A stretch of DNA of 64,000 nucleotides. It comes from Escherichia coli O127:H6 str. E2348/69 (GTDB taxonomy: Bacteria; Pseudomonadota; Gammaproteobacteria; Enterobacterales; Enterobacteriaceae). The stretch lies in NCBI RefSeq assembly GCF_000026545.1, contig NC_011601.1, one strand, 5' to 3'. Every line of letters begins with the position of its first letter. The stretch's first letter is position 1. The translations under genes were made by a program, and so were the position numbers. Positions 1 through 64,000 of the stretch are shown here, piece by piece. The notes below the pieces were generated by a model that saw nothing but the letters and a program-made list of their open reading frames with translations, did not search any database and had not been told where the DNA came from.

Positions 1-183
1 TGCGGTGATCCAGCCCTGGCCCTGACCTTTCAGGAAGCGCGGCACGCCTTCTTCAATAGAGGCGGTACACAACACTTTGGTATCGCCAAATTCGACCAGC
101 ACCGAGCCTTCTGCATGTTTTGTATAGTTACGAGTCAGGGTAACGGGACGCACCTGATTATTGCTACGGCCTGCTGGACGCAT
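1..183 (-). CDS. rph: RNase PH, N-terminal part (gene continues past window start)
   Basis: Reverse-strand translation from the ATG at 183-181 reads [61 protein letters not shown], recognisable as E. coli RNase PH. It is absent from the ORF track because it runs off the window. It is divergent from yicC as in K-12. Confidence 0.9.
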
Positions 184-309
184 ATTGAAATCTCCGGCTT
201 GAAACAAATGTGGCTGCGCATTATACGGACTTCCGGCGGTTATTCCTATCCTGACAAGGCATCGATGGCTATAATCCTTCCACCTCTCCTTTTATAAACA
301 GGAACGTCT

Positions 310-1173
310 ATGATCCGCAGTATGACCGCCTACGCCCGGCGTGAAATCAAGGGTGAATGGGGGAGCGCAACCTGGGAAATGCGCTCGGTAAACCAGCGTT
401 ATCTGGAAACTTACTTTCGTCTGCCGGAGCAGTTCCGTAGCCTTGAACCTGTCGTTCGTGAGCGTATTCGTTCTCGCCTGACGCGCGGTAAAGTGGAATG
501 TACCCTGCGCTATGAGCCCGATGTCAGCGCGCAAGGTGAGCTGATCCTCAACGAAAAACTGGCTAAACAGCTGGTAACTGCCGCGAACTGGGTAAAAATG
601 CAGAGTGACGAAGGGGAAATCAACCCGGTTGATATTCTCCGCTGGCCAGGCGTGATGGCGGCCCAGGAACAGGATCTCGACGCGATTGCCGCTGAAATTC
701 TCGCGGCGCTGGATGGTACGCTGGACGACTTTATCATCGCGCGCGAAACCGAAGGTCAGGCGCTGAAAGCATTGATCGAGCAGCGTCTGGAAGGCGTGAC
801 CGCCGAAGTGGTCAAAGTCCGCGCCCACATGCCGGAAATCCTGCAATGGCAGCGTGAGCGTCTGGTGGCTAAGCTGGAAGACGCCCAGGTGCAACTGGAA
901 AACAACCGTCTGGAGCAGGAGTTGGTTCTGCTGGCACAACGAATTGACGTTGCCGAAGAGTTGGACCGCCTCGAAGCGCATGTTAAAGAGACCTACAACA
1001 TTCTGAAGAAAAAAGAAGCCGTTGGTCGTCGTCTGGACTTTATGATGCAGGAGTTCAACCGCGAGTCGAACACCCTGGCCTCGAAGTCTATCAATGCCGA
1101 AGTGACTAACTCCGCCATTGAGCTGAAAGTGTTGATCGAGCAGATGCGCGAGCAGATTCAGAATATTGAATGA
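310..1173 (+). CDS. yicC: YicC-family stress-induced protein, 287 aa
   Basis: The 287-aa ORF MIRSMTAYARREIKGEWGSATWEMRSVNQRYLE... matches remembered E. coli YicC. It has the K-12 position next to rph. Confidence 0.9.
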   Translation: MIRSMTAYARREIKGEWGSATWEMRSVNQRYLETYFRLPEQFRSLEPVVRERIRSRLTRGKVECTLRYEPDVSAQGELILNEKLAKQLVTAANWVKMQSDEGEINPVDILRWPGVMAAQEQDLDAIAAEILAALDGTLDDFIIARETEGQALKALIEQRLEGVTAEVVKVRAHMPEILQWQRERLVAKLEDAQVQLENNRLEQELVLLAQRIDVAEELDRLEAHVKETYNILKKKEAVGRRLDFMMQEFNRESNTLASKSINAEVTNSAIELKVLIEQMREQIQNIE

Positions 1174-1212
1174 TTTTGCATGCTGTCGCATGAAATTGCA
1201 AAAATCCATCAT

Positions 1213-1237
1213 AGCCCGCATTTTGCGGGCTTTTTTA
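1213..1237 (+). terminator. Rho-independent terminator of yicC
   Basis: The hairpin GCCCGC-ATTTT-GCGGGC is followed by a T6 run, 40 nt after the yicC stop. Confidence 0.75.
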
Positions 1238-1281
1238 TTTTCATACTGTCGCATATGATTGCATAGCATCGCGCAAAACAT

Positions 1282-1300
1282 TTGTACCCAAGACTGTACC
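1282..1300. repeat. attL core, direct repeat TTGTACCCAAGACTGTACC
   Basis: It is identical to 12406-12424. An inverted copy of its left half (TGGGTACAAA, 1325-1334) lies just before the int start. Confidence 0.85.
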
Positions 1301-1360
1301 TTTAATAATTTATCCAATTCATTTTGGGTACAAAATGATAGTCAATATTCAGGTGAAACT

Positions 1361-2620
1361 ATGGCAAAGCTGACAGATATCCAAATCAAGTCATGGATTA
1401 AGGCAGGAGAACGCTTCGAGGGGCGCTCTGACGGCAACGGGCTATACCTTCGCTATCGAGTGGGGGATAAAGTGCCTGTATGGCGTTTTCGATATCAGTT
1501 CGCTGGGAAATCACGGGTAATGCTTATTGGATCTTATAGCGAAATATCCCTTTCCAAAGCACGGGAAATAGCCAAGGAATTATCCGCACGTGTAGCCCTG
1601 GGCTTCGATGTCGCCGGGGAAAAGAAAGCGCGAAAAGCGGCTGCTATAGAAAAGATGGAGCGGGAGAAAAACGCGCTTCGCGTGTCAGAGCTAGCAACCG
1701 AGTATTTCGAACGGCAGATTTTGGGACGCTGGAAACATCCCGATCTTCTGCGCCGGAGAATCGATAAGGATATCAACCCACATATTGGCAACATGAAGAT
1801 AGAGGACGTAAAACCCCGTCATATTGATGCGATGCTACAGAGCGTTGTTGATCGTGGCGCTCCAACCGTAGCTAATGACGTTCTGCGCTGGACTAAACGC
1901 ATATTCGATTATGCTATCAAGCGTCATGCACTGGAATTAAACCCAGCTGGAGCATTTGATCTGTCAGACGCTGGCGGGCAGGAAAGTAGCCGTATGCGCT
2001 GGCTGACCCGTGAAGAACTTATACGTTTTTTCCAAGCTATGCGCACTGCAAAAGGATTCAGCCGCGAGAACGAGCTGACCATGAAGCTAATCCTCTGCCT
2101 GTGTTGTCGCAAAATGGAGCTGTGCGGTGCTCAGTGGGATGAATTCGACCTTGATGAAGCAGTGTGGCATCTACCAGCAGAACGCGTTAAAAACGGCGAC
2201 GCTATTGATATACCACTACCTCCACCTGCGGTTGGTTGGTTGAGAGAGCTTCGCACTATCGCGGGCAGTGGGAGTAAATGGGTTCTCCCCGCGCGGAAGA
2301 TGCAACACCGCATGATTCCCCACATTCAGGAAAGCACACTCCCAGTGGCGCTGGCAAAAGTACGCCGCGAAATGCCAGAAGTACCAAACTTCACAATTCA
2401 CGATTTCAGGCGTACCGCCCGCACCCATTTAGCGGCGTTGGGTGTCGATCCCGTAGTCGCAGAACGTTGCCTGAATCACCGCATTAAAGGCGTTGAGGGT
2501 ATCTACAACCGCCACCAGTACTTTGAAGAACGACGGGCAGCCCTGGAACTGTGGGCGGGGCTTCTGGTTTCGCTTGAACGAGGGGAAAACTACAATGTTA
2601 TTCCTTTATCTAAAATATAA
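1361..2620 (+). CDS. int: Tyrosine recombinase, P4-type integrase (N-terminal DUF4102-like arm-binding domain plus catalytic domain), 419 aa
   Basis: MAKLTDIQIKSWIKAGERFEGRSDGNGLYLRYRVGDKVPVWRFRYQFAGKSRVMLIGSY is the typical P4/CP4-57 integrase N-terminus. The C-terminal part has HDFRRTARTHL and a terminal ...GIYNRH... tyrosine region. An AGGTGA SD lies 5 nt upstream of the ATG at 1361. Confidence 0.9.
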   Translation: MAKLTDIQIKSWIKAGERFEGRSDGNGLYLRYRVGDKVPVWRFRYQFAGKSRVMLIGSYSEISLSKAREIAKELSARVALGFDVAGEKKARKAAAIEKMEREKNALRVSELATEYFERQILGRWKHPDLLRRRIDKDINPHIGNMKIEDVKPRHIDAMLQSVVDRGAPTVANDVLRWTKRIFDYAIKRHALELNPAGAFDLSDAGGQESSRMRWLTREELIRFFQAMRTAKGFSRENELTMKLILCLCCRKMELCGAQWDEFDLDEAVWHLPAERVKNGDAIDIPLPPPAVGWLRELRTIAGSGSKWVLPARKMQHRMIPHIQESTLPVALAKVRREMPEVPNFTIHDFRRTARTHLAALGVDPVVAERCLNHRIKGVEGIYNRHQYFEERRAALELWAGLLVSLERGENYNVIPLSKI

Positions 2621-2636
2621 AAGTTTTGTTTGAAGG

Positions 2637-2739
2637 TATTCACCCTATTCACCTTTTTAATTAACTTCATGATTTTAAATAATAAAAAAGGGTGAATACT
2701 TACAGTAAAACTAATCACCTTAGTATTCACCTGTTCACC
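2637..2739. repeat. Iteron cluster (ori-like): six copies of T(A/G)TTCACC around an AT-rich spacer
   Basis: TATTCACC is at 2637, 2646 and 2724. TGTTCACC is at 2732. Degenerate TAATCACC is at 2712. Inverted GGTGAATA is at 2691. The 2654-2690 spacer is almost pure A/T. TGTTCACC is the type I iteron I recall being bound by P4 alpha protein at ori and crr. Confidence 0.65.
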
Positions 2740-2939
2740 TTCTAAAGCTGCTGTGGCTGCTCCCCTTGCCCGAAAACACGCCAGCCACCAGCGTTAAAAA
2801 AAACTACAAAAATCATCATCGTACAGATCTGTACGATGACGCCAGCACTCACCCTACAAAACAACCTAACTTATTGATTTCAAAAGTAGAGAAAATCTGC
2901 TTTATGCCACTAGCTCGCACCCGTCCCCAAAAAGAAAAA

Positions 2940-2966
2940 GCCCGCGCTGGAGACGCACGGGCTTTT
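2940..2966. terminator. Bidirectional hairpin terminator between the int/iteron region and the cargo operon
   Basis: GCCCGCG-N9-CACGGGC is flanked by A-rich sequence upstream and TTTT downstream, so a T-run follows the hairpin on both strands. Confidence 0.5.
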
Positions 2967-3123
2967 GGGTACCGATAACCATGTTTGGAATCAACTCATT
3001 GAGTTCTGACCTCAATTTGCATGTTATCACAAGAAAAACACATTGTAATAATTGCAACAACGAATATCATCATTGCATATAATGAAACATAAATATCCGA
3101 TAGAACATACTGAGGTCTGACCG

Positions 3124-3675
3124 ATGCAAGATATTACAAACATCGCAGTGACTGGCGAAGATGGCGTGGTGACGTATGCCGACGGCAGTAAAGAGGAGTT
3201 CCAGTGCAGCGGAACCGTTGCGACCATCATTGCAAGTCTTGCAACGACACTCGAGAAAGAACGCAAAATGCGCATCGCCACCGGCGACCGCCTGCGCCGC
3301 ATGTACACCCGCGACAGTGATATGATTTCCCGCGGTTTGAATGGCACGTCTGCTACTTCCACGGCACCGACAGCAATGAATGCTGAGTTCATGCGTCTGG
3401 TACGTGCCGTAGCGCCGAAATACGATTCAGCACTGCCCGACGCCGACCCGCGCATCGTTGCGCTCGATGTGCTGCGCTACGCCCCTGCTGAGGCGTTCAG
3501 CGCCGTACACCCTACCCCAATGTCAGAAATCCAGCTGGATCAGGCTATCGATATACTCGAGCAGGTTGGCGACTACATGAAAGCAAACAATATCGCTCCG
3601 AAAATAATTTCTACAGGAGACGCAATCCGCAGCATCAATGCTGACAACGCCACCTTCTGGGGCAAAAAACACTAA
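3124..3675 (+). CDS. Hypothetical protein, 183 aa (cargo operon 1, gene 1)
   Basis: A GAGG SD lies about 9 nt upstream of the ATG. I recognise no family. The C-terminal motif INADNATFW is shared with the next ORF. Confidence 0.65.
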   Translation: MQDITNIAVTGEDGVVTYADGSKEEFQCSGTVATIIASLATTLEKERKMRIATGDRLRRMYTRDSDMISRGLNGTSATSTAPTAMNAEFMRLVRAVAPKYDSALPDADPRIVALDVLRYAPAEAFSAVHPTPMSEIQLDQAIDILEQVGDYMKANNIAPKIISTGDAIRSINADNATFWGKKH

Positions 3676-3688
3676 AGAGATATGAAGC

Positions 3689-3877
3689 ATGTCTATCTAT
3701 GACCCGAAATTAGCCGCAGGCAACCCACAGCGCGCCCACCGCCCAATGCTGACCCGTCAGGATCTTGAAACGGCAAAGGCACGCAATAACTTCGATCGCC
3801 AGAGTCGCAACCTGCAGCAACTCAACGAATCAAATGCACGGTTCTGGAGTGAACAGAATGAGAAAGCCAAACGTTAA
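3689..3877 (+). CDS. Hypothetical small protein, 62 aa (cargo operon 1, gene 2)
   Basis: It starts 13 nt after gene 1. It carries LNESNARFW, similar to the gene 1 C-terminus. Its 3' end overlaps the gene 3 start by 20 nt. Confidence 0.5.
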   Translation: MSIYDPKLAAGNPQRAHRPMLTRQDLETAKARNNFDRQSRNLQQLNESNARFWSEQNEKAKR

Positions 3878-4034
3878 GCCGGTCCTGCTGTCCGCCGAGC
3901 AGATGCAGGCCATACGCAACATTCAGGAACGTGAACGCCAGCGCTCCAATCTCGGCGTCGCTCCCACCGTTCACCAGATTGCCCGCGGCCTCATGGCTAA
4001 GGCTCTGGCCTCACTGGCAAGCGAGGGCGCGTAA
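3858..4034 (+). CDS. Small putative ribbon-helix-helix-like protein, 58 aa (cargo operon 1, gene 3)
   Basis: The ATG at 3858 has a GGAG SD 8 nt upstream, within the longer track ORF 3765-4034. MRKPNVKPVLLSAEQMQAIRNIQERERQR...TVHQIARGLMAKALASL has a strand-helix-helix pattern. The stop overlaps the next start as TAATG. Confidence 0.5.
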   Translation: MRKPNVKPVLLSAEQMQAIRNIQERERQRSNLGVAPTVHQIARGLMAKALASLASEGA

Positions 4035-4765
4035 TGGGCGCCATTCACCAGATATATGAGCAGGAAATGTTCTATAACTGGATAGGCGATGGTAAACGAT
4101 GTGTAGCATTCCACGAAGCGGGCCATGCAGTAGCCGCATGGCTTATTCGCTTAGATATGCAGGTTATCGCCATTATGGATGAATCCGGCTACGTTGCTGG
4201 CGAACATGTACATGAAGCCCAGTGTTTGGGCGTTGTTAAACACGGCATAATCCACAGCCACGATCTCAGGCGTTTGCGGGAGAGTAAATCTGGTGTAGTT
4301 GGGCACGATGGCAAAGTTATCCCTTTCATACGCTACTACGCGGAAGGTATAAAGCGCGATGCAACAAAGGCCGCTTTTGTAGCCCTCGCTGGACCAGTAA
4401 GCGAAGCCATTTACGAAAATAACGAAATTTTCAATATAAAGTATTCACTCCCTCACCGCTATGACATGGCTAACGTAAATGACATGCTCGATTTAATATG
4501 TGCCACGGATAAGCGAATTAACAGGAAGTTAATGCTTTCTAAACTTGTTGAAAAGACCAAATTCCTCATGACTCAATACTGGCCGGAAGTAGGAAAAATA
4601 GCGCATTTGCTTGAGCGGGATAACATTGTTAATGGCCGCGATGTTAGCTCGCTAATCGGCCTCAACGTCATTGACCGGGCAACGCCATTTTTGGTATCTG
4701 ACTTGAGCAGTACATTTGCTCATCTCCCGTACTCGTCCCTGCCTCCGAATGAATTAGCAACTTGA
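4034..4765 (+). CDS. Stand-alone FtsH-like (peptidase M41-type) zinc metalloprotease domain protein, 243 aa, with no AAA+ module and no TM segment
   Basis: FHEAGHAVAAW (HEAGH at nt 4112-4126) matches the FtsH zinc site. Later segments (VALAGPVSEAIY, MANVNDMLDLI, KIAHLLERDNIVNGRDVSSLI) parallel the FtsH protease domain by eye. There is no Walker A/B. Confidence 0.7.
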   Translation: MGAIHQIYEQEMFYNWIGDGKRCVAFHEAGHAVAAWLIRLDMQVIAIMDESGYVAGEHVHEAQCLGVVKHGIIHSHDLRRLRESKSGVVGHDGKVIPFIRYYAEGIKRDATKAAFVALAGPVSEAIYENNEIFNIKYSLPHRYDMANVNDMLDLICATDKRINRKLMLSKLVEKTKFLMTQYWPEVGKIAHLLERDNIVNGRDVSSLIGLNVIDRATPFLVSDLSSTFAHLPYSSLPPNELAT

Positions 4766-4777
4766 AGACAGTAAAGT

Positions 4778-4802
4778 AGCCATGCATTTAACACGCATGG
4801 CT
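4778..4802. terminator. Bidirectional hairpin between the two convergent cargo operons
   Basis: A perfect 8-bp stem AGCCATGC / GCATGGCT with a 9-nt loop lies in the 47-nt gap between the stops at 4765 and 4813. Confidence 0.55.
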
Positions 4803-4812
4803 ATGTGAACAT

Positions 4813-6036
4813 TTAAGAATTAGAGCGCTTAGGCGATCGCGTAAATTGCACTAAAGCCCCTTTATGATCGTTAGCCTGCACATCACGATGCTCAACCAAC
4901 ATAGATTTTAATTTTGCCAGATGCACAACAGCAGCCTTCTTGCCAGTCAGGTACCCCTCGGGCAAACCAGCAATCATTTCCACATCAATAGCAGATAAAC
5001 CTGCGAATGCAGCAAGCCGTTCAACTGAAATGATTCCAGACGATGCCAGCAATTCAATAGTACGTTTCAACAAACGTGGTTTTTCAGGCTCACGATAATC
5101 ATCTCCCGGCTCTGATTTCGCTCCCCAACGTGCTGAACGACGCTTATAAAGATTTTGTTTCTCTTCTTCCGTAATAATATGCAGCACATGTAAACGCATG
5201 ATACTTGCCGCAACGGAAATACCATAGCGTTGTTTAATTAAAAGCAAGCTATCTAATGTTACCGGGGTCCTAATTTCTTCGGCAAATGTCTCAGCAGGAA
5301 GCAGCAGTGCTCCCGCAAATTTATGAGCCTGACTTTCCTTCAGCTTATAACGTTCGGCTTCGAGTTCGTTGCCAACATAGCGGTGAAGGATCAGATGACC
5401 AATTTCGTGAGCAAGGTCAAATCTGCTACGAAAAGCATTACCTTTATCTGAAGAGAGGAGAACAAAAGGAACACCTAAAGTCTCACTCCAGGCAGAAAGC
5501 CCTTCAATCTGCGCAACGCCTGTTTCTTCTCTAATAACGATAATACCATTACTCTCTGCGGCTAAAGCAAGATCCGGTATTTCCTTTGTACCAAGATTCC
5601 AAAGAGCACGGCACTCATTAGCAGCGTCTTCAATATCTGCATCACTAATTTCATCAATGTTTGTAAAGCTACGACGCGGTAGTTTTAGCTCCGGCAGATC
5701 TACAAACTCAGTCAGCTTAGTAACTAACTCATTAGCCCAATGGATTCGAGTTTCTAACATTGCTCGTGCAGCTACATGAGCTGATGCATTGCTTCTGAAC
5801 AGAGGCTTTGACATCCCCTTCAACAGAGGGCGCGTAAACCATTCAGGTGTAACATTTACGACAGTGGCCAGACGTTCTAAAGCCTCAGACTCTGGAGCCT
5901 GTTGACCGGAACGCCATTTGCTAATGGTTGCTGGTGATACACCCACCATAGTAGCTAATTGAGTTTGTGATAGCCGCCGGGCGGCTAGTACCTGTGCTAA
6001 CCTGCCCGGTTGAAATTCGGCGACGCCTCGGCTCAT
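4813..6036 (-). CDS. XRE-family HTH fused to an ImmA/IrrE-type (M78, COG2856) zinc peptidase domain with a C-terminal extension, 407 aa
   Basis: The N-terminus LAQVLAARRLSQTQLATMVGVSPATISKWRSGQQAP is a classic XRE HTH. HEIGHLILH is at aa 210-218 (HEIGH at nt 5395-5409). The start overlaps the upstream gene stop as ATGA, with a GAGGAAG SD. Confidence 0.8.
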   Translation of the reverse strand: MSRGVAEFQPGRLAQVLAARRLSQTQLATMVGVSPATISKWRSGQQAPESEALERLATVVNVTPEWFTRPLLKGMSKPLFRSNASAHVAARAMLETRIHWANELVTKLTEFVDLPELKLPRRSFTNIDEISDADIEDAANECRALWNLGTKEIPDLALAAESNGIIVIREETGVAQIEGLSAWSETLGVPFVLLSSDKGNAFRSRFDLAHEIGHLILHRYVGNELEAERYKLKESQAHKFAGALLLPAETFAEEIRTPVTLDSLLLIKQRYGISVAASIMRLHVLHIITEEEKQNLYKRRSARWGAKSEPGDDYREPEKPRLLKRTIELLASSGIISVERLAAFAGLSAIDVEMIAGLPEGYLTGKKAAVVHLAKLKSMLVEHRDVQANDHKGALVQFTRSPKRSNS

Positions 6037-6680
6037 ACATTATCTTCCTCGGTTCCATCTTTTCTGATAATGCCCCTTTTGAGCCCAGGGAATGCATTAT
6101 CTTCTTGGGACGGAACTACATCATATCGGGTTAAAAAAAGTTCAAGTGGCTCATGAAAAACCCAGCGCTTCCCATCAGAACTTGGTACAACAAGCTCTAT
6201 AGACATCGGAGCTTCAGGCTGAATCTGCAACGAACCGGAAAAACGGCATACTACGAACAGTGTAGCTTTTGGCACATCAGAACCATCGGAGAATAAATCC
6301 GGTTGCACCATTTTTTCCACAAACACGTTCTCAGAAATGAGTTCTTGCTTACGTTTGCTACGGAATAATCTCTTCCACTGGTTATCATTGTAGCTTTCAC
6401 GAACAATCGTGAATATACCACTATGGCCTTCTACAATACGGTTACCACGCAGCTTTCCAGGATTACAACCGTTGGCCTCAAACACCTCATAAATAGTTTC
6501 ATTCAGGTTTAAATGACGATCATAACCAAGCGCGGTCGATCTGTGATCTAGCTTCTTCTTTTGAGCATAATCGTAAGAACGCTTTGATGCCGCGTAAATC
6601 GCGTCAGAAAGGGCCATGAAGAGTTGTTTTGAAACATTCTGAACGATGAGATCTGCCACTTTGGATTTTTTCACGACCAT
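6033..6680 (-). CDS. Hypothetical protein, 215 aa, first gene of cargo operon 2
   Basis: It is an intact ORF with an AGGA SD. It is translationally coupled (ATGA) to the XRE-ImmA gene. I recognise no family. Confidence 0.65.
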   Translation of the reverse strand: MVVKKSKVADLIVQNVSKQLFMALSDAIYAASKRSYDYAQKKKLDHRSTALGYDRHLNLNETIYEVFEANGCNPGKLRGNRIVEGHSGIFTIVRESYNDNQWKRLFRSKRKQELISENVFVEKMVQPDLFSDGSDVPKATLFVVCRFSGSLQIQPEAPMSIELVVPSSDGKRWVFHEPLELFLTRYDVVPSQEDNAFPGLKRGIIRKDGTEEDNV

Positions 6681-6683
6681 TTC

Positions 6684-6702
6684 CTATCACTGTCACTGAT
6701 AG
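6684..6702. promoter_or_regulatory. Operator-like inverted repeat CTATCA-N7-TGATAG at the start of cargo operon 2
   Basis: CTATCACTGTCACTGATAG lies 4 nt upstream of the 6680 start codon, overlaps the SD, and contains an internal tandem TCACTG. Confidence 0.45.
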
Positions 6703-7209
6703 CCGTGATTTTATATCAGTATTTTTTCGTGTGTCCATAACGCAATCAATTATTTTTTCCTTTGTCAGCAAGAATTATATAAAAAGCACTATCATGACAG
6801 GATTTGGGCCACTAACCTTTCACAGACTCTTGAAGTCCTAGAAAAAAGCAATGGCACAAGGTGTCCTTGCCGGGAGAAAAATCATCTGGCTACCAGCAAC
6901 CTTATAGATTCCAGATCAACGTAATATCAAAGTAAAACGTCCATTTCCGGTACCATATTTGGTCATTACGACGGGGGAAACTTATACCCACTGCTGCCCC
7001 ATCGTCAGCGCCGACAGGGACCTATGCCGCAAGGTATAAGGCAAAATTGGCATTTTCGCTATTCCCCCTGCCCGTATTTTTTGGCTTACTGGAATTTCTC
7101 TATCTAACACAATGAACTTGAGGCTATTCCGACAGGGAGAAAAGCGATCTACGCCTGACCGCCTGCCTCAGCAATCATCCAGGCAAGTACGTGTGTAAGG
7201 CTAACGCGA

Positions 7210-7890
7210 ATGAGTGATTTTTATTCCCCTCTACCAAGCTATGATCTTGTCCGGGCAGCGGAGATGCTGACTGATAAGGGGGCAAATTGTACCGGTAACG
7301 ATTTATTGGAACTATGGAACCAAGGCGTTATCGAGTTGTGTTTTTCTCTGCCGGACTACATTGCTTGTGAAGATGTTAATTTTCCCGGGCATGGTCACAG
7401 CATTTTGTTATCCGTGGATCCGATTAGCTTCAACCTTTTCTGGCTAAATGTTGATTACCCACCGAACTTAAATGCTAACTTTTCTGTGAAAGAATATGGC
7501 TCAGATAGTGAATTCCATGAGCAGTCCCTATGGATACCAACAGAACCGCACTACAACACTCACCATGATAACGGGGAAGGGCTTTGCGAAGCGTTAAGGA
7601 ATACTTATGGCCGGGAAAATTTACGAATACCAGGTGTCGAATTGCAAAAGGTTTGGCGCTTTTTGATCGGTCAGCCTTATGAAAAAAAGCCAACGCCTGA
7701 GCGTATCACCGCTAAGCAATGCCGCTTTATCGTCGCATTACTCAGATCGTATAACCTGACTGACGATGATTTTAAGGGGAGCATTAGGGACCTGAGAATT
7801 AAGATATCTAACCGGATCCCTTCAATCGGTGATCCTGAAATCGATGATAATACCCTTACTGACTGGCTGAAGAAGGGAGGGGTTCGGTAG
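7210..7890 (+). CDS. Hypothetical protein, 226 aa, first gene of the rightward alpA operon
   Basis: It is an intact ORF after a 529-bp intergenic region. I recognise no family. Confidence 0.6.
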   Translation: MSDFYSPLPSYDLVRAAEMLTDKGANCTGNDLLELWNQGVIELCFSLPDYIACEDVNFPGHGHSILLSVDPISFNLFWLNVDYPPNLNANFSVKEYGSDSEFHEQSLWIPTEPHYNTHHDNGEGLCEALRNTYGRENLRIPGVELQKVWRFLIGQPYEKKPTPERITAKQCRFIVALLRSYNLTDDDFKGSIRDLRIKISNRIPSIGDPEIDDNTLTDWLKKGGVR

Positions 7891-7891
7891 C

Positions 7892-7928
7892 TGAGTTTTC
7901 ATAACTCCGATGAGTTTTCAATAACTCC
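7892..7928 (+). repeat. Tandem direct repeat TGAGTTTTCA(A)TAACTCC x2
   Basis: The copies are at 7892-7908 and 7911-7928 and differ by one extra A. They lie immediately after the 7890 stop. Confidence 0.7.
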
Positions 7929-7957
7929 CCCACCCGTAACCACCTACCCCGTAGCCT

Positions 7958-7993
7958 TGCGATTACCTTCTCACTCAATAGCAGGTAATCGCA
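7958..7993 (+). promoter_or_regulatory. Hairpin able to sequester the alpA SD and start codon
   Basis: There is a perfect 10-bp inverted repeat, TGCGATTACC (7958-7967) and GGTAATCGCA (7984-7993). The right arm contains the AGGTAA SD and the A of the ATG. Confidence 0.45.
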
Positions 7994-8205
7994 TGAAATC
8001 GCAAACTTTCACCTTTCCTACCAATGGCAACGCACGAGCCAAACAAGTGGCGCACTATCTTGGAGTGCATATCAGCACCGTATGGCGCTATGCAAAACGT
8101 CCTGATTTTCCAAAACCCCACCAGTTAACCGACGGCGTGACCGTCTTTGACGCCGCAGCTATTCGCCAATGGAACAAGCAAAAAACCGGGGGTGAGAATG
8201 CTTAA
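7993..8205 (+). CDS. alpA: AlpA-family (MerR-like HTH) phage/island regulatory protein, 70 aa
   Basis: RAKQVAHYLGVHISTVWRYAKRPDFPKPHQLTDGVTVFDAAAIRQWNKQK matches the AlpA/Vis-type pattern. Confidence 0.8.
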   Translation: MKSQTFTFPTNGNARAKQVAHYLGVHISTVWRYAKRPDFPKPHQLTDGVTVFDAAAIRQWNKQKTGGENA

Positions 8206-8259
8206 CGCGACCGTGAGCACACCCTGCACGACAGCCGTTCGATCTCCATTGTTGGCGGG

Positions 8260-8454
8260 TCAGGCTTTCGGCTCAATACCCAGCCGCTGGAGTTCTTTGC
8301 GCCCCAAGGTTTTCATCCAATTAGCTAAACTCATACCTGCATCTCGTGCGGCGGCCTCGAATTGCTCTTTCAATTCTGGGGCGATCCTCACTTGGAAAGC
8401 TGGTGCCTTTCCCCTGCCTTTGGGCTGTTTATCACGCTGTATTACTGTTGACAT
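8260..8454 (-). CDS. Ribbon-helix-helix (Arc/CopG-type) DNA-binding protein, 64 aa
   Basis: MSTVIQRDKQPKGRGKAPAFQVRIAPELKEQFEAAARDAGMSLANWMKTLGRKEL is a typical RHH signature. The start is chosen at the internal Met of track ORF 8260-8547. Confidence 0.65.
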   Translation of the reverse strand: MSTVIQRDKQPKGRGKAPAFQVRIAPELKEQFEAAARDAGMSLANWMKTLGRKELQRLGIEPKA

Positions 8455-8458
8455 GTAT

Positions 8459-8512
8459 GTACCTATTAAACTAAGATTCAAATCAATAGGTACGCACCTT
8501 AACATGTTAAGG
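8459..8512. promoter_or_regulatory. Divergent operator region: a 9-bp inverted repeat plus a 16-bp perfect palindrome
   Basis: GTACCTATT (8459-8467) pairs with AATAGGTAC (8485-8493). CCTTAACATGTTAAGG is at 8497-8512. Both lie between the RHH gene start (8454) and the rightward operon start (8589). Confidence 0.5.
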
Positions 8513-8588
8513 TCAGAAAAGACAACGCCCCGTAGTGCTCGCAACACATACGGGGCGTCTAACCAACAACGTTACGGAGACTAACGCT

Positions 8589-8789
8589 ATGGCTAAGCCG
8601 CAGTGTACCCAAACTCACCCCAAATATCAGTATCGTTTTATGGCGCTCGATCGCGCTGACCGCCAGGCAAAACCCTGCAAAATCATTGTTGAGGCCACCA
8701 GCGAGCATGAAGCACGTAAGGTGTTGGCACCTCACTACATCCTGTCACTGTCCGCCGTTTTGCCAGTTCAGGAGGTGAGCCATGTTTAA
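8589..8789 (+). CDS. Small protein, 66 aa, possibly Icd-like (host cell division inhibitor-like)
   Basis: The ATG has a GGAGA SD 8 nt upstream. MAKPQCTQTHPKYQYRFMALDRADRQAKPCKIIVEATSEHEARKVL resembles my memory of Icd-like proteins found upstream of primases in P4-like islands. This is unverified. Confidence 0.45.
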   Translation: MAKPQCTQTHPKYQYRFMALDRADRQAKPCKIIVEATSEHEARKVLAPHYILSLSAVLPVQEVSHV

Positions 8790-8976
8790 TGTCATTGTCA
8801 CGGTCACCTATCACTTTTCGGGAACGATCCGTCGTTTTGCTATTCCGGAACGTTTCAATAATCGTGAGCTCGCAGAGAAAGCGGCGCAGCAGTTAACCCA
8901 TACCAGCTATCTGGATGATGGAGTGAGCAGAATTGTGACCCACGCGGCGGAAGTAGTGGAGGTGCGCCATGTATGA
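8782..8976 (+). CDS. Hypothetical small protein, 64 aa
   Basis: Its start overlaps the previous stop by 8 nt (translational coupling). I recognise no family. Confidence 0.5.
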   Translation: MFNVIVTVTYHFSGTIRRFAIPERFNNRELAEKAAQQLTHTSYLDDGVSRIVTHAAEVVEVRHV

Positions 8977-9157
8977 CGCCTACCTGAACCCAAAGGACGC
9001 ACTCCGTCCGATCGCCGTTGCACTCGAGGCTGCGCAGTTTATCGCGCTTGACCCGGAGAATACCGATTTAGCCCATGAGCTGATCGCCTGGGCACTTGAA
9101 ACAGCCGCGCGTGCCTCAGCTGCGCAACGTAACACCCCGGAGGTGGACAATGCTTAA
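8969..9157 (+). CDS. Hypothetical small protein, 62 aa
   Basis: Its start overlaps the previous stop by 8 nt. I recognise no family. Confidence 0.5.
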   Translation: MYDAYLNPKDALRPIAVALEAAQFIALDPENTDLAHELIAWALETAARASAAQRNTPEVDNA

Positions 9158-9458
9158 TCTCAATACATGGAATCTTTTCACGCTGCCGCTGAACGGTGGC
9201 GCAGCTGAGACAGCGCCGGACGATCTGCGTCTGCTGGCCGCTGTGGGGGACGAGGCTCGCAACAACTACCTGCGCGGTGTAAGCGCCATCGGCAATCTGA
9301 TCTTCTGGGCATGTGATAACCCCAACTACACCGACCATCAAGCTGACCTGCCAGCGCTGGGCGCATTCCTGAAACATACCGCTGATATGGCGCGCGCTGC
9401 CGAATTCATGGCAGGACATCTGGACTCACTGGCTGACGGCAAAGAGGGAGGCAAATAA
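9150..9458 (+). CDS. Hypothetical protein, 102 aa
   Basis: The internal ATG at 9150 has a GGAGG SD and overlaps the previous stop (ATGCTTAA). I recognise no family. Confidence 0.5.
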   Translation: MLNLNTWNLFTLPLNGGAAETAPDDLRLLAAVGDEARNNYLRGVSAIGNLIFWACDNPNYTDHQADLPALGAFLKHTADMARAAEFMAGHLDSLADGKEGGK

Positions 9459-9679
9459 TGCCACGCAAACATCGCTCATCAAGCAACCTGATCAAATTAA
9501 TGGAACGCCAGAAAGGTATAGGGCGCGACGATATCCAGATCGCAGATAATCGCCCTACATTCATGCCGTACGAGCCGAACGGAACCTACGCTACAAACCG
9601 CCATACCCGCCGTATGCTACGCAAGCTCCACGGCATCCAGGCAAAAAGAATGTGTGATCTGAAAGGAGGTCAGAAATGA
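9458..9679 (+). CDS. Hypothetical basic small protein, 73 aa
   Basis: It overlaps the previous gene as TAATG, and its stop overlaps the primase start as ATGA. Confidence 0.5.
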   Translation: MPRKHRSSSNLIKLMERQKGIGRDDIQIADNRPTFMPYEPNGTYATNRHTRRMLRKLHGIQAKRMCDLKGGQK

Positions 9680-12090
9680 GTGGATTCGATCACCTGATGG
9701 AGCAGGGGCAGAAACGCACCCCTGCTCGTTTTACTGCAAATAGCTTTTCTGACCTGTGCAACGCTATTCTATCGCATCGTGTGCAAATTTCCATCACACA
9801 GGAAATGACGGATGAAGAACGGCGCAAAGAAAAGCAGAAACTGTACTGGTTCTCGGCAACTACCCAGCAGGACGGGCAGCGACGTAAACCCGAAAACATG
9901 GCACCGTGTGCTTTCGGTATGCTGGACATTGACGGCAGCACTCCCGGTGCAATCACAGCACTTGTACAGGTGTTCCGGCGATACTCAATGCTGGTGTACC
10001 AGACGGCCAGCTATACGACGGATGAACCTCGTCTGCGTATTGTGTGCGAGCTTTCCCGAGCGGTTGAATCTGACTACCGCCGAGCGACAGGCGAATCCAT
10101 AGAAACTTTGTTGATGCAGGAGGCTGGATTCTCATTCGCCAGCCTGGCGGATAAGAAAGCACGCTGGGAGAACGGCAGCGATTATGTTGTCTTTGACCGC
10201 AATGTATACGGCGCTCAAAGCTATTGCTACTGTCCACACACTGGAGCGAAAGCCCAGAATTACGCGGGCGCGGTAATCGACGTAGGGGCGTTACCGGAAC
10301 CCGCCCAGCCACCAGCGAAGGCGGCCAAAAGCAAGGCAAAGAAACAGCGCCAGCGTGACGCCGCGGCGGTAATAGATGCTGATTTTGACGATCTGAGCGC
10401 CGGACCGGATAACTTCCTTATCGCCGACCTGCGCAGCGCACTCTGGTTTCCCTCCATGCTGCAAAAGGCATGGGACAATGGGGCGTGGATTGAGCAGGGC
10501 TACCGCCTTGCATCTCTCAAAGGCACCGATTTTGAGGACGACGCGCGGCAACTGTGGGTCGAGTGGTCATTGACCGCAGCGGATGGCTGGCCTGATGAAG
10601 AACTTGATGAAGTCGCGGCACAACGCTGGAATGGTCTCGCCCCTGACAAAACCAGCTATAAAGCTATTTTTACTGATGCTCAGGCGCAGGGGTGGAATAA
10701 TCCGGGCAAATGGCGAGCAAAGGCCGCGTACATTGAGAAAATGGCCCCCAGCACACGCGGTGAACTGCTGGCGCAATATTACGGCAACGTATGCCTGAAA
10801 GCTGATGGCAACATGGTTTATCACTATACCGGGCAGGTGTGGGAGCACATCGCCGATGCCGAGTTGCGCCGCCAGCTTTCGCAGATTTTCAAAGATAACG
10901 GGGTCCCCTTTACACCGTACGAGGTTAAAAGCGCGATTGAGGCTATGGGAATGCTTCTGCCTTTAATGGGAGAAACTCCTCGTAACCTGATTGGCTTTGC
11001 CAACGGCGTTTATGATCTCGAGGCGCAGCGATTCCGCCCCCACTGCCCAGACGATTGGCTGACCAGCCATAACGGCGTTGAATACACGCAGCCGGTTAAA
11101 GGCGAAACCCTGAAAAACAATGCCCCAAACTTCTGGCGCTGGCTGCATCATTCCGCAGGGGGCGACTTCGACAAAATGGAGAGAATCAAAGCCGCTCTGT
11201 ATATGGTGCTGGCAAACCGCTACGACTGGCAACTGTTCATCGAGGTTACCGGTGCTGGTGGCAGTGGTAAAAGCGTGTTCACGGGTATTGCACGTATGCT
11301 GACGGGCGAACTACACGCCACCAGCGGCACAATGGAGGACATGGACACCGCGCGCGAACGCGCATCTTTTGTCGGCAAAAGCCTGATCACCCTACCCGAC
11401 CAAGCAACATATACGGGTTCCGGGCCGGGTATCAAGGCTATAACGGGCGGCGACGTGGTAAGGATCGACCCAAAGCACGAAAAGCCATTCCATACGGTTA
11501 TTCGCGCCGTTGTCATCGCAACAAACAACGAACCTATGCGTTTCACCGAACGACAAGGCGGGATATCGCGGCGCCGGGTTATTTTCCCGTTTAACCATGA
11601 AGTGCCGGAGGCGGAACGTGATCCCCATCTGCTCGATAAAATTAAAGCCGAACTGCCGGTAATCGTCCGTGGTCTGCTGATTGACTTCGAACAGCCAGGC
11701 AAAGCCAAATCGCTACTTATCGCGCAGCGTGATTCAGCGGAAGCGCTGCAGGTGAAGAACGATAACGACCCGATGTATGGCTTTTGCTCTTACCTGCTAG
11801 GTTTGCCGAATCCCGAGGGCATGTACATGGGCGATGGGCGCATGGCGCGAGAGCCACGCATCTACCTCTATCATGCTTATCTGGCCTATCTGGAAGCCTA
11901 CGGTTATCAGAGAACCCCCACCCTACCGAAGTTCAGCGGAGATTTACGGGACACGCTCAAAGCCTTTGGTATTACTCTGGACAGTAAAAAGAGTAAAAAG
12001 GGCAAAAGATATAACGTCAATTTGTCTGACAGGGCACAAGAATGGCTGGGAGAAGACGAACTCTCAGCTGTGCCCGACACATTGCAGTAA
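9676..12090 (+). CDS. P4 alpha-like replication protein: N-terminal primase-like domain, PriCT-2-like region, D5_N/SF3 helicase P-loop, 804 aa
   Basis: Walker A GAGGSGKS is at nt 11251-11274. The surrounding ...ANRYDWQLFIEVTGAGGSGKSVF...IKAITGGDVVRIDPKHEKPF...ATNNEPMRF...GGISRRRVIFPF matches the phage/plasmid primase P4-family C-terminal domain. A candidate DxD (LDIDG) is at nt 9925-9933. Confidence 0.85.
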   Translation: MSGFDHLMEQGQKRTPARFTANSFSDLCNAILSHRVQISITQEMTDEERRKEKQKLYWFSATTQQDGQRRKPENMAPCAFGMLDIDGSTPGAITALVQVFRRYSMLVYQTASYTTDEPRLRIVCELSRAVESDYRRATGESIETLLMQEAGFSFASLADKKARWENGSDYVVFDRNVYGAQSYCYCPHTGAKAQNYAGAVIDVGALPEPAQPPAKAAKSKAKKQRQRDAAAVIDADFDDLSAGPDNFLIADLRSALWFPSMLQKAWDNGAWIEQGYRLASLKGTDFEDDARQLWVEWSLTAADGWPDEELDEVAAQRWNGLAPDKTSYKAIFTDAQAQGWNNPGKWRAKAAYIEKMAPSTRGELLAQYYGNVCLKADGNMVYHYTGQVWEHIADAELRRQLSQIFKDNGVPFTPYEVKSAIEAMGMLLPLMGETPRNLIGFANGVYDLEAQRFRPHCPDDWLTSHNGVEYTQPVKGETLKNNAPNFWRWLHHSAGGDFDKMERIKAALYMVLANRYDWQLFIEVTGAGGSGKSVFTGIARMLTGELHATSGTMEDMDTARERASFVGKSLITLPDQATYTGSGPGIKAITGGDVVRIDPKHEKPFHTVIRAVVIATNNEPMRFTERQGGISRRRVIFPFNHEVPEAERDPHLLDKIKAELPVIVRGLLIDFEQPGKAKSLLIAQRDSAEALQVKNDNDPMYGFCSYLLGLPNPEGMYMGDGRMAREPRIYLYHAYLAYLEAYGYQRTPTLPKFSGDLRDTLKAFGITLDSKKSKKGKRYNVNLSDRAQEWLGEDELSAVPDTLQ

Positions 12091-12109
12091 CTTGTAAAAA
12101 ATCACCAAG

Positions 12110-12131
12110 AACCCCGTAAATCGGGGTTTTT
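12110..12131 (+). terminator. Rho-independent terminator after the primase gene
   Basis: AACCCCG-TAAAT-CGGGGTT is followed by a T-run, 20 nt after the stop. Confidence 0.75.
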
Positions 12132-12152
12132 GTCTATTTATTAGTCTGAAAG

Positions 12153-12254
12153 GGTGAACAGGTGCGCATACCTTAACAAAGCTGTTCACTCTAATAATTT
12201 TCTTTAATATCAGTACACTACCCGCAATAAGTGAACAGATGGACGGGGTGAACA
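12153..12254. repeat. Second iteron cluster (crr-like): four copies of GGTGAACA / TGTTCAC
   Basis: GGTGAACA is at 12153-12160 and 12247-12254. TGTTCACT is at 12183-12190. AGTGAACA is at 12230-12237. An AT-rich spacer lies between them. It is the same octamer family as 2637-2739. Confidence 0.6.
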
Positions 12255-12405
12255 CTTCACACCTATAGCGCGAAATATTTTAATATTTGCAGTTGAATTG
12301 CAATCCTTGAAAACAGAAACGCGTAGCAAAACGTAGAGTGCTGAAAAAATTTTGTTGGGGAGCAGTTCAAACTGCATGAGCAATTTTCAAGCACTCCTCT
12401 TTGTC

Positions 12406-12424
12406 TTGTACCCAAGACTGTACC
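12406..12424. repeat. attR core, direct repeat TTGTACCCAAGACTGTACC
   Basis: It is identical to 1282-1300. Confidence 0.85.
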
Positions 12425-12653
12425 CAATAGAAAAAATAGAAAATAAAAACTCAGCAATAGCAGCGATTGGTTACACTACTCAACATTCAGATTCAACTCG
12501 TAACGCCAATTCTTACTTTTCAGCCTTCACAAATGCCGCCCACTCAAACAGAGCGGCATTTTTCTTCCCCGCAACTTCAATTCTGTTTTGCGTGCCTGCT
12601 CCAGATTTTGCGATGTTTTTTTGCCCAGCGCAGTGAGAACGTGAGATACTCAC

Positions 12654-12673
12654 AACTGTATATAAACACAGTT
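12654..12673 (+). promoter_or_regulatory. LexA (SOS) box of dinD
   Basis: AACTGTATATAAACACAGTT fits CTGT-N8-ACAG and lies 44 nt upstream of the dinD start. Confidence 0.8.
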
Positions 12674-12716
12674 GTAGACTTACTTTCCTTGCAATCGATA
12701 TCACATGGAGTGGGCA

Positions 12717-13541
12717 ATGAACGAACATCATCAACCTTTTGAAGAGATAAAGCTGATTAATGCAAACGGAGCAGAACAATGGTCAGCAAGACAACTTGGG
12801 AAACTACTGGGTTATTCAGAGTATCGTCACTTTATACCTGTATTAACGCGCGCCAAAGAAGCTTGTCTGAATAGTGGTCACACAATTGATGACCATTTCG
12901 AGGAGATCCTCGATATGATCAAAATTGGCTCAAATGCCAAAAGAGCATTAAAAGACATCGTACTCTCCCGCTATGCCTGTTACCTGGTAGTACAAAACGG
13001 CGACCCTGCGAAACCGGTTATTGCGGCAGGGCAAACTTATTTTGCTATCCAGACCCGACGGCAGGAGCTGGCTGACGATGAAGCTTTCAGGCAACTTCGT
13101 GAAGACGAAAAGCGTCTTTTTCTGAGAAATGAGTTGAAAGAACATAACAAACAATTAGTTGAGGCAGCGCAGCAAGCTGGGGTAGCGACAGCTATCGATT
13201 TCGCCATATTTCAGAATCATGGTTACCGGGGGCTGTATGGTGGATTAGATCAGAAAGCCATCCATCAGCGGAAGGGGCTGAAAAAGAGTCAGAAGATCCT
13301 GGATCATATGGGTTCAACAGAACTGGCGGCTAATCTCTTTCGAGCTACCCAAACAGAAGAAAAACTCAAGCGGGATGGCGTGAATTCAAAACAGCAAGCT
13401 AACACCACACACTTTGACGTGGGTCGCAAGGTGAGGCAAACCATTCAGGAACTTGGCGGAACCATGCCTGAGGAGTTGCCGACCCCGCAGGTCAACATCA
13501 AGCAGTTGGAAAACAGTGTAAAAATTACAGAGAAGAAATAG
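12717..13541 (+). CDS. dinD: DNA-damage-inducible protein D, 274 aa
   Basis: MNEHHQPFEEIKLINANGAEQWSARQLGKLLGYSEYRHF... matches remembered K-12 DinD. The start is taken at the second Met of the track ORF. Confidence 0.9.
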   Translation: MNEHHQPFEEIKLINANGAEQWSARQLGKLLGYSEYRHFIPVLTRAKEACLNSGHTIDDHFEEILDMIKIGSNAKRALKDIVLSRYACYLVVQNGDPAKPVIAAGQTYFAIQTRRQELADDEAFRQLREDEKRLFLRNELKEHNKQLVEAAQQAGVATAIDFAIFQNHGYRGLYGGLDQKAIHQRKGLKKSQKILDHMGSTELAANLFRATQTEEKLKRDGVNSKQQANTTHFDVGRKVRQTIQELGGTMPEELPTPQVNIKQLENSVKITEKK

Positions 13542-13832
13542 CAGAAACTAAAAACTCTTTTTGTTGATTGAGATACCCGATGCGTAAGCCAAAGTCCAGG
13601 TGCGGTGAACACAATGGCTAAACATTGCACCTTTCTTTTCCACCCCTCAATTTTAACCTATTTTTTCTTATGCATTCTCTCAGACAAGAAGTCAGAAGAA
13701 TGCATCTACGCTACAGAAAATAGCGATTTCACATAACTACAAGTTATCAATTTCCTCTCACCTTAAAAAATCTCAATCGTGACAATACGCACAAATCGCT
13801 ACCCTGCCAGACAGATTTTTAGGGAGAGAACC

Positions 13833-16224
<2,392 letters not shown>

Positions 16225-26993: not shown

Positions 26994-27036
26994 AAATAAG
27001 GACGCTAGCGGATATCAGCGCTAGCGTTCCCCGTTA

Positions 27037-28630: not shown

Positions 28631-28677
28631 ATCTCGTTCCTTGTTGCGTAAAAGGCGGGTCACCCCGCCCTTCTGGC

Positions 28678-29538: not shown

Positions 29539-29618
29539 GTTAAATCTCCAGTTTCAGCGTGTAGTCCGCCCTGCCGGTGCGTTATTGCACTGGCATAAAG
29601 GCCATGACAGAAAATGAA

Positions 29619-30470: not shown

Positions 30471-30481
30471 AGGGCCTCCGG

Positions 30482-31573: not shown

Positions 31574-31597
31574 ATTAAGATCCCTCCAGTATAAGGA

Positions 31598-31912: not shown

Positions 31913-31929
31913 GACATACTCCCTGTTAT

Positions 31930-32400: not shown

Positions 32401-32426
32401 TCGTCATACCTCATAAAATTCTGACA

Positions 32427-63945: not shown

Positions 63946-64000
63946 TTTCCATATTCTTTTTATTTGATAAATAAATCGACATAAAAAACATACATAAAAA

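Follow-up and report, generated by a model that had tools for sequence, protein, structure and literature searches.

The island that separates yicC from dinD in the chromosome of Escherichia coli O127:H6 str. E2348/69 (contig NC_011601.1) raises two questions: where exactly does it begin and end, and what kind of element is it? The stretch analysed here, hereafter the window, comprises 64,000 nucleotides, with yicC at 310-1173 and dinD starting from 12705. An initial annotation described a P4-family satellite at 1282-12424, inserted in an intergenic, non-tRNA target between two copies of a perfect 19-bp direct repeat, TTGTACCCAAGACTGTACC, which were taken as the attachment core. The repeat is there as described: the 19-mer occurs exactly twice, at 1282-1300 and 12406-12424, the chance expectation being 0, and the 10-bp inverted copy near the left one is exact (1281-1290 is the reverse complement of 1325-1334). 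Its meaning depends on the choice between two alternatives: the 19-mer could be the crossover core, hence marking the ends of the island, or both copies could lie inside the island, the ends being situated further out. Comparison with an unoccupied site favours the latter, and the island is probably a phage-satellite-type element of the enterobacterial int-alpA-primase kind, that is, a 'classical' Gram-negative phage-inducible chromosomal island (PICI) in the sense of Fillol-Salom 2018, with a P4-alpha-type replicon.

Both island ends were aligned to the unoccupied yicC-dinD site of strain JNE181771 (L003), and the E. coli genome counts below refer, unless stated otherwise, to a sample of 5,426 complete genomes. 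The sequence of the empty site is ...GAGCAGATTCAGAACATTGAATAA|CTCGTAACGCC... (in longer form ...GAGCAGATTCAGAACATTGAATAA|CTCGTAACGCCAATTC...), so that the yicC stop codon is directly followed by the sequence starting at approximately 12496 in the window. It contains neither the 19-mer nor the adjoining window segments 1162-1281 and 12425-12495 (121 bp on the left and 71 bp on the right). The empty junction predicted from the 19-mer is not observed either: a synthetic 602-nt version has a best coverage of 69% in any genome of the sample, whereas an 82-nt version is contiguous in 0 of the 5,426 genomes, and its split halves are found in exactly the 17 genomes that are integrase-positive. Thus, the 19-mer is seen only together with the element, which the initial annotation itself had named as evidence against its proposal. 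Among 185,579 species-representative genomes the 19-mer has three matches, in unrelated phyla, which is about the chance number.

The boundaries are instead marked by a shorter outer repeat, CAGATTCA, an 8-bp direct repeat with one copy in the last yicC codons (1153-1160, attL) and the other at 12488-12495 (attR), after which the chromosome resumes at approximately 12496, where the empty site aligns from CTCGTAACGCC. The empty site has a single copy of it. The outer repeat agrees with the core GAGCAGATTCAA published for yicC-dinD, which is the listed attachment site of the PICI EcCIRM13514 (Fillol-Salom et al. 2018, PMC6092414 Table S1), and the right-side chromosomal homology with EcCIRM13514, a different island at the same site, restarts exactly at 12495. 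On the left, the alignment with the empty site and the translation indicate that the YicC C-terminus, ...QIQNIE*, is kept by the element-supplied segment GAATATTGAATGA (1161-1173, plus strand), and a strong terminator hairpin at 1213-1231, found by the terminator scan, is also supplied by the element and would terminate yicC. Given the empty-site alignment, the outer repeat, the position where the EcCIRM13514 homology restarts, the published core, and the rebuilt yicC end with its terminator, the inserted DNA spans approximately 1161-12495, or 11,335 bp. Hence the island would end in the yicC 3' end at CAGATTCA, with the 19-mers lying inside it. The target is indeed not a tRNA gene, but the crossover falls in the last yicC codons and not in an intergenic spacer; nor is such a site unusual, as had been supposed, since yicC-dinD is already listed for a PICI and most E. 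coli PICI sites in the same table (PMC6092414 Table S1) are not tRNA genes.

What, then, are the 19-mers? Each consists of two tandem units with a 12-bp period, TTGTACCCAAGA|CTGTACC. The core is 121 bp away from the int-side pair (1282-1300) and 63 bp away from the far-side pair (12406-12424), both pairs being on the plus strand; a fifth unit, inverted (TTGTACCCA on the minus strand, 1325-1336), lies just before int. The same geometry is annotated in the GenBank record of P4 (NC_001609), where the distance to the core is 113 bp for the tandem 12-bp 'attP arm sequence repeats' (TTGGGGGCATnn) on the int side and 54 bp for a second tandem pair opposite them, and where an inverted copy is placed at the start of int. 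In two sister elements at the yicC site, EcCIRM13514 and the element of strain M9682-C1, double GTGTAC motifs occupy the homologous positions, with a left copy that differs from the right one: GTGTACATAAAGGTGTACA and GTGTACACAAGGGTGTACA in the former, GTGTACACCTAGGTGTACC and GTGTACACAAGGGTGTACC in the latter, the far-side pair of the sister elements having the form GTGTACACAAGGGTGTAC(A/C). EcCIRM13514 also has ATGTACA copies in the place of the inverted unit. Such non-identical copies are incompatible with a crossover core and are expected for arm sites that track the integrase allele; judging from this comparison, the arm sequences appear to co-vary with the integrase allele. Since the left and right copies differ in the sister elements, the geometry is that of P4, and the integrase has an Arm-DNA-bind_3 domain, the 19-mers are most likely putative arm-type integrase sites inside the island, the P arm on the int side and the P' arm on the far side.

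The terminator hairpin, which lies between the core and the int-side arm, is flanked by two direct repeats of 26 nt (TGTCGCAT-N5-TTGCA; 1175-1200 and 1238-1263, plus strand), and a third copy of this family (D1), at 7978-8003, lies at the alpA start. The sister elements with a different AlpA (34% identity) carry another repeat (CTATCA...GACGCA) at the same two positions, and we consider the TGTCGCAT-N5-TTGCA repeats plausible candidate AlpA/excisionase sites. Comparison indicates that the arm-binding tyrosine integrase inserted the island in the last yicC codons, at a short core around CAGATTCA, and that the yicC terminus is rebuilt, and the terminator brought, by the element; in the circular form, as the geometry and the covariation suggest, the arm sites would flank the core and help to assemble the recombination complex, while AlpA, the candidate excisionase, may act at the two repeats between the core and the int-side arm. 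The predicted attP map thus starts with an arm pair followed by the core; next come the two candidate excisionase repeats with the terminator between them, then the other arm pair, the inverted arm site and finally int. Taken with the sister elements and P4, the att region makes this full map directly testable. For the design of an excision polymerase chain reaction, or for deletion of the island in E2348/69, the outer yicC junctions should be used, not the 19-bp repeats.

The attR side varies between carriers. In E2348/69 and A34, 10 bp (ACATTGAATA) beside CAGATTCA are missing that are retained in DEC5B (window 12488-12505 versus L007 13656-13685); the spacer to the right of CAGATTCA differs among carriers, with further short variants in other carriers. 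Because its attR lacks these 10 bp next to CAGATTCA, the E2348/69 copy of the island may excise poorly. A 86-aa hypothetical protein annotated in RefSeq at 12376-12636 spans the far-side arm sites, the core and chromosomal DNA and is probably a spurious call.

The gene content bears on the second question. The tyrosine integrase gene (1361-2620, plus strand) starts 60 nt past the 19-bp repeat, close to it as the initial annotation had said, although the distance given there was 61 nt. The protein has an arm-binding N-terminal domain (Pfam Arm-DNA-bind_3, 7e-19; also Phage_int_M and Phage_integrase), is 78% identical to the EcCIRM13514 integrase and 27% identical to that of P4, and is encoded in 17 of the 5,426 genomes. 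At the other end of the island lies the gene of an 804-aa primase-helicase (9676-12090, plus strand) with Pfam D5_N, DUF5906 and Pox_D5, the TIGR01613 'P4 family' match, and a superfamily 3 (SF3) helicase. Its residues 314-791 are 44% identical to P4 alpha, and residues 696-791 match the solved P4 origin-binding domain (PDB 1KA8, 6e-16), whereas the N-terminal 350 residues are not P4-like, the nearest protein being APSE P3 at 32% identity, with no Pfam match. The primase-helicase is 48% identical to that of EcCIRM13514, 46% to that of EcCICFT073 and 44% to that of P4; P4 is thus not nearer to the element than the E. coli PICIs are.

The replicon also has iterons of the P4 type. T(G/A)TTCACC iterons number 14 in the window against 3.7 expected, in line with the TGTTCACC-type iterons reported earlier, and they form two clusters. 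Cluster A, ori-like, lies just after int and consists of five T(A/G)TTCACC copies (TGTTCACC and the variant TATTCACC) in 2637-2739. Cluster B (GGTGAACA/TGTTCAC; four copies, two exact and two near, in 12153-12254) lies directly 3' of the intrinsic terminator of the replication operon (12106-12132, plus strand; terminator scan) and is placed like crr in the P4 annotation. By homology, the origin-binding domain of the primase-helicase would bind the iterons after int and those after its own gene.

Upstream of the primase-helicase gene the order of genes is that shared by E. coli PICIs. The AlpA-family regulator/excisionase (7993-8205, plus strand) has Pfam Phage_AlpA (8e-7) and PHROG 66, 'excisionase and transcriptional regulator'. 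It is followed by a divergent gene of a 64-aa ribbon-helix-helix (RHH), Arc-like protein (8260-8454, minus strand; PHROG 228 Arc-like repressor, 1e-5, with weak HicB/RHH matches), in the position occupied by a YlcI/YnfO gene in other PICIs; we regard it as a candidate repressor of the replication operon. A promoter-like site, TTGACA-18-TAAGAT (8448-8477, plus strand), identified as a consensus match only, precedes the first gene of that operon, which encodes an Icd-like small protein (8589-8789, plus strand; NCBIfam phage_ICD_like, 5e-18) that is 44% identical to the P4 left-operon region 8350-8174. Four translationally coupled small open reading frames (ORFs) follow on the plus strand (8782-8976, 8969-9157, 9150-9458 and 9458-9679); their start and stop codons overlap, and the chain 8589-9679 runs into the primase-helicase gene. 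Pfam, PHROG and further profile scans gave no informative family match for any of the four. By analogy with homologous systems, the RHH protein and the consensus-like promoter would control the whole operon, from the icd-like gene through the four small ORFs to the primase-helicase. The layout reported in the initial annotation, with int at one end, an alpha-like primase-helicase and P4-type iterons at the other, and AlpA and coupled ORFs in between, is therefore confirmed, and a P4-family satellite was broadly the right kind of element. The family name itself fits less well: beside the primase-helicase identities, the C4/cI and isrK RNAs of P4 were not found by Rfam, even at E<=10 on 8150-8700, between alpA and icd, while Rfam detects the pair in P4 as well as in the PICI of M9682-C1.

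The region of the divergent repressor-like gene is itself variable. In strain 2013C-3342 (L009) the element is otherwise 99% identical, and 8281-8526, with the divergent RHH/YlcI-type gene and the promoter, is replaced, which may represent an immunity-type swap. Mosaicism extends to the small ORFs at 8786-8957.

The initial annotation had reported no capsid-hijacking gene, no structural gene and no P2/P4 cos. The ORFs scanned were those annotated in RefSeq and three extra candidates, and the profile libraries were Pfam, PHROGs, NCBIfam and PADLOC. No ORF matched the Sid, Psu, Delta, Epsilon, RppA, capsid, decoration or terminase families, either in the profile scans or in tblastn with the P4 and EcCICFT073 proteins, and the only known satellite proteins matched in these searches were int, alpA, icd and pri. 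In tblastn against window 1-14000, P4 Sid, Delta and Psu gave chance matches only, and epsilon gave none, so that the hidden sid/psu/delta homologues that might have overturned the earlier claim were not detected by Pfam, PHROG or tblastn. Phage structural or lysis genes were likewise absent from the Pfam and PHROG scans, and general Pfam, PHROG and NCBIfam scans turned up no relaxase, oriT-associated or partition genes. For the P2/P4 cos, the 19-nt cohesive end has no match at <=5 mismatches, and blastn-short of the P4 cos region returned only 9-10-nt chance matches. The only lambda-like cosN 12-mer, at 11445 (1 mismatch), was rejected as it belongs to the conserved coding block ITGGD, which is also present in pri of CFT073. 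Finally, when the complete element was compared by blastn with 50,697 phage records, similarity was confined to the primase and icd regions, and no segment resembled a phage cos.

The search with pri also returned an IMG/VR contig, L017 (IMGVR_UViG_3300011696_000024), which we rejected as evidence of packaging because it includes chromosomal flanks. It holds a related island beside yicG-ligB-gmk. Two of its ORFs, of 407 and 215 aa, resemble the RmrA/RmrT pair described below in size and arrangement, and its primase has an N-terminal domain that is 70% identical but is fused to a DUF927 helicase, not to a P4-type module.

The element nevertheless appears to have moved. Between E2348/69 and three other carriers it is 98.6-99.7% identical, whereas the left flank is 97% and the right flank 91-92% identical. 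As the element is more similar between strains than the chromosomal flanks, these values fit a recent horizontal acquisition.

By marker-based definitions the island falls short of both classes. The P4-like set of SatelliteFinder consists of int, psu, delta, sid, alpA, epsilon and alpha, at least 5 of 7 being needed, and a PICI call needs at least 4 of 5 core markers; the island has 3/7 and 3/5, respectively, below both cut-offs. From the P4-like features it has alpha with the P4 origin-binding domain and TGTTCACC iterons, as well as the integrase and AlpA/Vis, and it lacks the psu-delta-sid operon, epsilon, a P2-type cos, and C4/cI RNA immunity with isrK. It does agree with the PICI description of Fillol-Salom 2018 (PMC6092414): int, alpA and the replication module follow the EcCICFT073/EcCIRM13514 order, yicC-dinD is an attachment site of Table S1 and the junctions agree, and there are no structural or lysis genes. 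The size given in that description is ~12-15 kb, against 11,335 bp here, which is within the 8.5-11.9 kb spanned by the E. coli PICI entries in Table S1 (PMC6092414). A helper cos together with Rpp/TerS redirection or a capsid morphogenesis gene was not found. Transfer would presumably need a helper phage. The class of element and the yicC-dinD attachment site are thus already known, and the new object is this lineage of island, notable for the complete absence of recognisable packaging functions, a P4-type origin system, and a well-resolved attP architecture. Since a recognisable hijacking module is absent, it exemplifies a satellite-like island that is probably missed by current marker-based definitions.

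Several points weigh against this interpretation. The two arm pairs agree at 19/19 positions, more closely than in the sister elements, which binding would not in itself account for; this identity, with zero chance expectation, a repeat longer and cleaner than the outer 8-bp one, and the fact that nested or tandem islands do occur at hot spots are what speaks for the 19-mer as the true crossover core, with an element at 1282-12424 in an intergenic attB and the outer ~120 and ~70 bp as a lineage-specific spacer or the remnant of an older island. However, among the 5,426 genomes the 19-mer never occurs where the integrase is lacking and the empty junction that this reading predicts is absent, the sister elements have the motif pair at the same distances with differing left and right copies, a third, inverted copy precedes int and the P4 arm repeats have the same geometry, and the outside segment resembles the terminus of an element in restoring the yicC end and supplying a terminator. 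We therefore consider the 19-mer core very unlikely, and the same evidence led us to judge an older-island origin of the outer segments unlikely. Within the ~20-bp yicC-terminal segment, on the other hand, the exact crossover cannot be fixed from sequence, attL and attR being identical over 8 bp only and attR being 10 bp short. As to the kind of element, neither SatelliteFinder model would probably call it, its satellite life style is only presumed given that the window searches found no cos, TerS, Rpp or capsid-remodelling function, and the life cycle is inferred throughout, no helper phage, excision product or packaged form having been observed.

Three other accounts were weighed. The island could be an immobilised remnant, a P4- or PICI-like satellite that has lost its cos and its packaging/capsid module and become, at least in E2348/69, a fixed defence island. 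If so, one would look for signs of loss, and there are some: cos, sid/psu/delta, Rpp, TerS and a capsid gene were not found in the window, the attR of E2348/69 and A34 is 10 bp short beside the core relative to DEC5B with a variable spacer among carriers, and the element is present in only 17 of 5,426 genomes. Yet all genes are intact, with int, alpA and pri at full length, both arm sites and both iteron clusters are preserved, the cargo and immunity segments have been swapped without decay, and in divergent backgrounds the flanks have changed more than the element; a remnant is hence unlikely, although it deserves consideration. We would give still less credit to a distinct 'minimal' satellite type, combining a P4-alpha replicon with PICI-style regulation, devoid of a cos and of any terminase-redirecting or capsid gene, and moved by an undescribed route, for which the candidates may be the o183/o62/o58/M41-like module or the int-alpA RNA with its variable downstream gene; in other PICIs this module occupies the slot that normally holds packaging and interference genes. 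Despite the missing functions, near-identical copies of the element occur in strains with more strongly diverged flanks. Highly improbable, finally, is a plasmid-like or mobilisable integrative element, with an episomal alpha-type replicon spread by conjugative mobilisation or generalised transduction. P4 can itself persist as a plasmid, the replicon here is of the P4 type with two iteron clusters, and dedicated packaging genes were not found, but the general profile scans gave no relaxase, oriT-associated or partition genes, and helper-induced E. coli PICIs share this regulatory layout of alpA, an icd-like gene, coupled small ORFs and pri.

The preferred assignment, a PICI-type satellite with a P4-alpha-type replicon, can be followed in the comparison with individual relatives. 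EcCIRM13514 has both its insertion point in the 3' end of yicC and its core (GAGCAGATTCA...) in common with the island, together with the closely related integrase already described. It shares the rebuilt yicC end, the repeat-flanked terminator, double GTGTAC-type sites in both arms and the inverted copy before int, and it likewise has alpA, a gene for an Icd-like protein followed by coupled small ORFs, and a primase-helicase of the D5_N/SF3 type. It differs in having genes for SSB, ProQ/FinO and PerC and further genes after pri, where the island considered here has only the iterons and att; conversely, the accessory genes of the latter (the M41-like module and RosmerTA) are situated between int and alpA. 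The AlpA proteins are only 34% identical, and the primase-helicase of EcCIRM13514 has 607 aa, as opposed to 804 aa with an extra N-terminal domain here.

The likeness to P4 (NC_001609) extends to the integrated order, namely int, a defence hotspot, AlpA/Vis, an Icd/eta-like gene, alpha, iterons and att. The two alpha proteins share 44% identity in the helicase and origin-binding domain, and TGTTCACC type-1 iterons immediately follow the terminator of alpha. In attP the core has tandem 12-bp arm repeats to either side, an inverted repeat marks the start of int, and the hotspot cargo next to int is swapped between otherwise identical elements. Unlike in P4, sid, delta, psu, epsilon, orf151, orf106 and a P2-type cos were not found here, an RHH protein is encoded in the region of the P4 C4/cI and isrK RNAs, and the N-terminal primase domain is different. 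The integrases are distant (27% identity); P4 integrates in a tRNA-Leu gene, and the target here is yicC.

Like the island, EcCICFT073, which has been characterised experimentally (PMC6092414, PMC6739421), has genes for an integrase, AlpA, a small divergently encoded protein and an Icd-like protein, as well as coupled small ORFs and a primase-helicase (46% identity); its size is similar, and it is without lysis or tail genes. Its lambda-type cos (GGGCGGCGACCT with conserved flanks), RppA, and the capsid/decoration-like genes after pri were not found here. The M9682-C1 element (L011) represents a third PICI type in the yicC site. It has isrK and C4 RNAs like P4 (L011 3840-4025) and brings its own dinD-like gene (L011 11699-12523), so that dinD appears duplicated.

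The accessory genes between int and alpA fall into two blocks. The second of them, at 4694-7948, is a swappable cargo cassette, or defence hotspot, delimited by blastn breakpoints relative to L007 and L008. Its GC content is 44.6%, against 53.7% in 7949-12090, in agreement with the earlier impression of an AT-rich, mosaic cargo region. In ten other carriers (71% covered; L007 examined) 4694-7948 is replaced between near-identical flanks. In L007 the replacement cassette has a second RosmerTA allele and one additional ORF, the gene preceding alpA is a different one, and only the int-alpA RNA is recognisable. Cassette swapping of this kind has been described for the P4 hotspot next to int (PMC13586616), and the island thus shows P4-style defence-cassette swapping, with two RosmerTA alleles, outside canonical P4.

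In E2348/69 the hotspot between the M41-like peptidase gene and alpA holds, on the minus strand at 6680-4813, a predicted RosmerTA toxin-antitoxin anti-phage pair, recognised from adjacent RmrT and RmrA genes. RmrA (4813-6036) has a helix-turn-helix domain and an M78 peptidase domain (PADLOC RmrA, 3.5e-125; Pfam HTH_3 and Peptidase_M78), and RmrT (6033-6680; PADLOC RmrT, 8e-16), the toxin partner, overlaps it by 4 nt; the promoter scan found a promoter-like site at 6737-6708 before RmrT. Compared with the PADLOC RmrT/RmrA models, the adjacent overlapping genes and the strong matches are typical, and no atypical features were detected. The remaining gene of the cassette, o226 (7210-7890, plus strand), upstream of alpA, encodes a modular protein with 12 homologues and a conserved C-terminal module of ~65 aa. 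Pfam, PADLOC and further profile scans gave no family matches for it and the PDB profile search was empty, while its AlphaFold2 (AF2) model, with pLDDT 54, was too poor for a structure search. The orphan int-alpA RNA motif (Rfam RF02996; 7117-7184, plus strand) lies 25 nt upstream of o226 and scores 39.4 bits against a gathering score of 35.8. In L007 the same motif (8154-8221) scores 46.5 bits. As it stays 78% conserved within a 3.25-kb cassette that is otherwise fully replaced, this RNA suggests a cis-regulatory leader for whichever gene comes after it.

The first block is a four-gene module on the plus strand (3124-4765; RefSeq gene calls), comprising o183, o62 (3689-3877), o58 (3858-4034) and an M41-like HEXXH peptidase gene (4034-4765). 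The last of these has a weak Peptidase_M41 match over a HEAGH motif and homologues named 'peptidase M41 family', and it matches approximately 1,100 of the 5,426 E. coli genomes. In other PICIs the module is placed downstream of pri, and region 2935-4693 is 96% identical to the module downstream of pri-ProQ-PerC in a tRNA-Gly PICI; the comparison covered L010 9001-10758 and L011 8983-9722. The module is a common satellite gene set. For o183, an AF2 model with pLDDT 66 gave no Foldseek match in PDB or BFVD at E<=0.001, and the PDB profile search was empty.

Beyond the island, several hundred genomes have the yicC and dinD flanks in separate places, the total being 6,209 places over 5,424 genomes, and one strain has an ISKox3 copy there (L004); yicC-dinD is a general insertion hot spot in E. 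coli. Further along the window, a fructose-type phosphotransferase system/aldolase island lies at approximately 27000-34000, between yicH and yicI. It is followed by tRNA-Sec (selC, 38278-38372) and then by the type III secretion island LEE (locus of enterocyte effacement), which continues to the window end at 64000. The yicC-dinD island is thus located ~26 kb from the LEE in E2348/69, a model strain of enteropathogenic E. coli.

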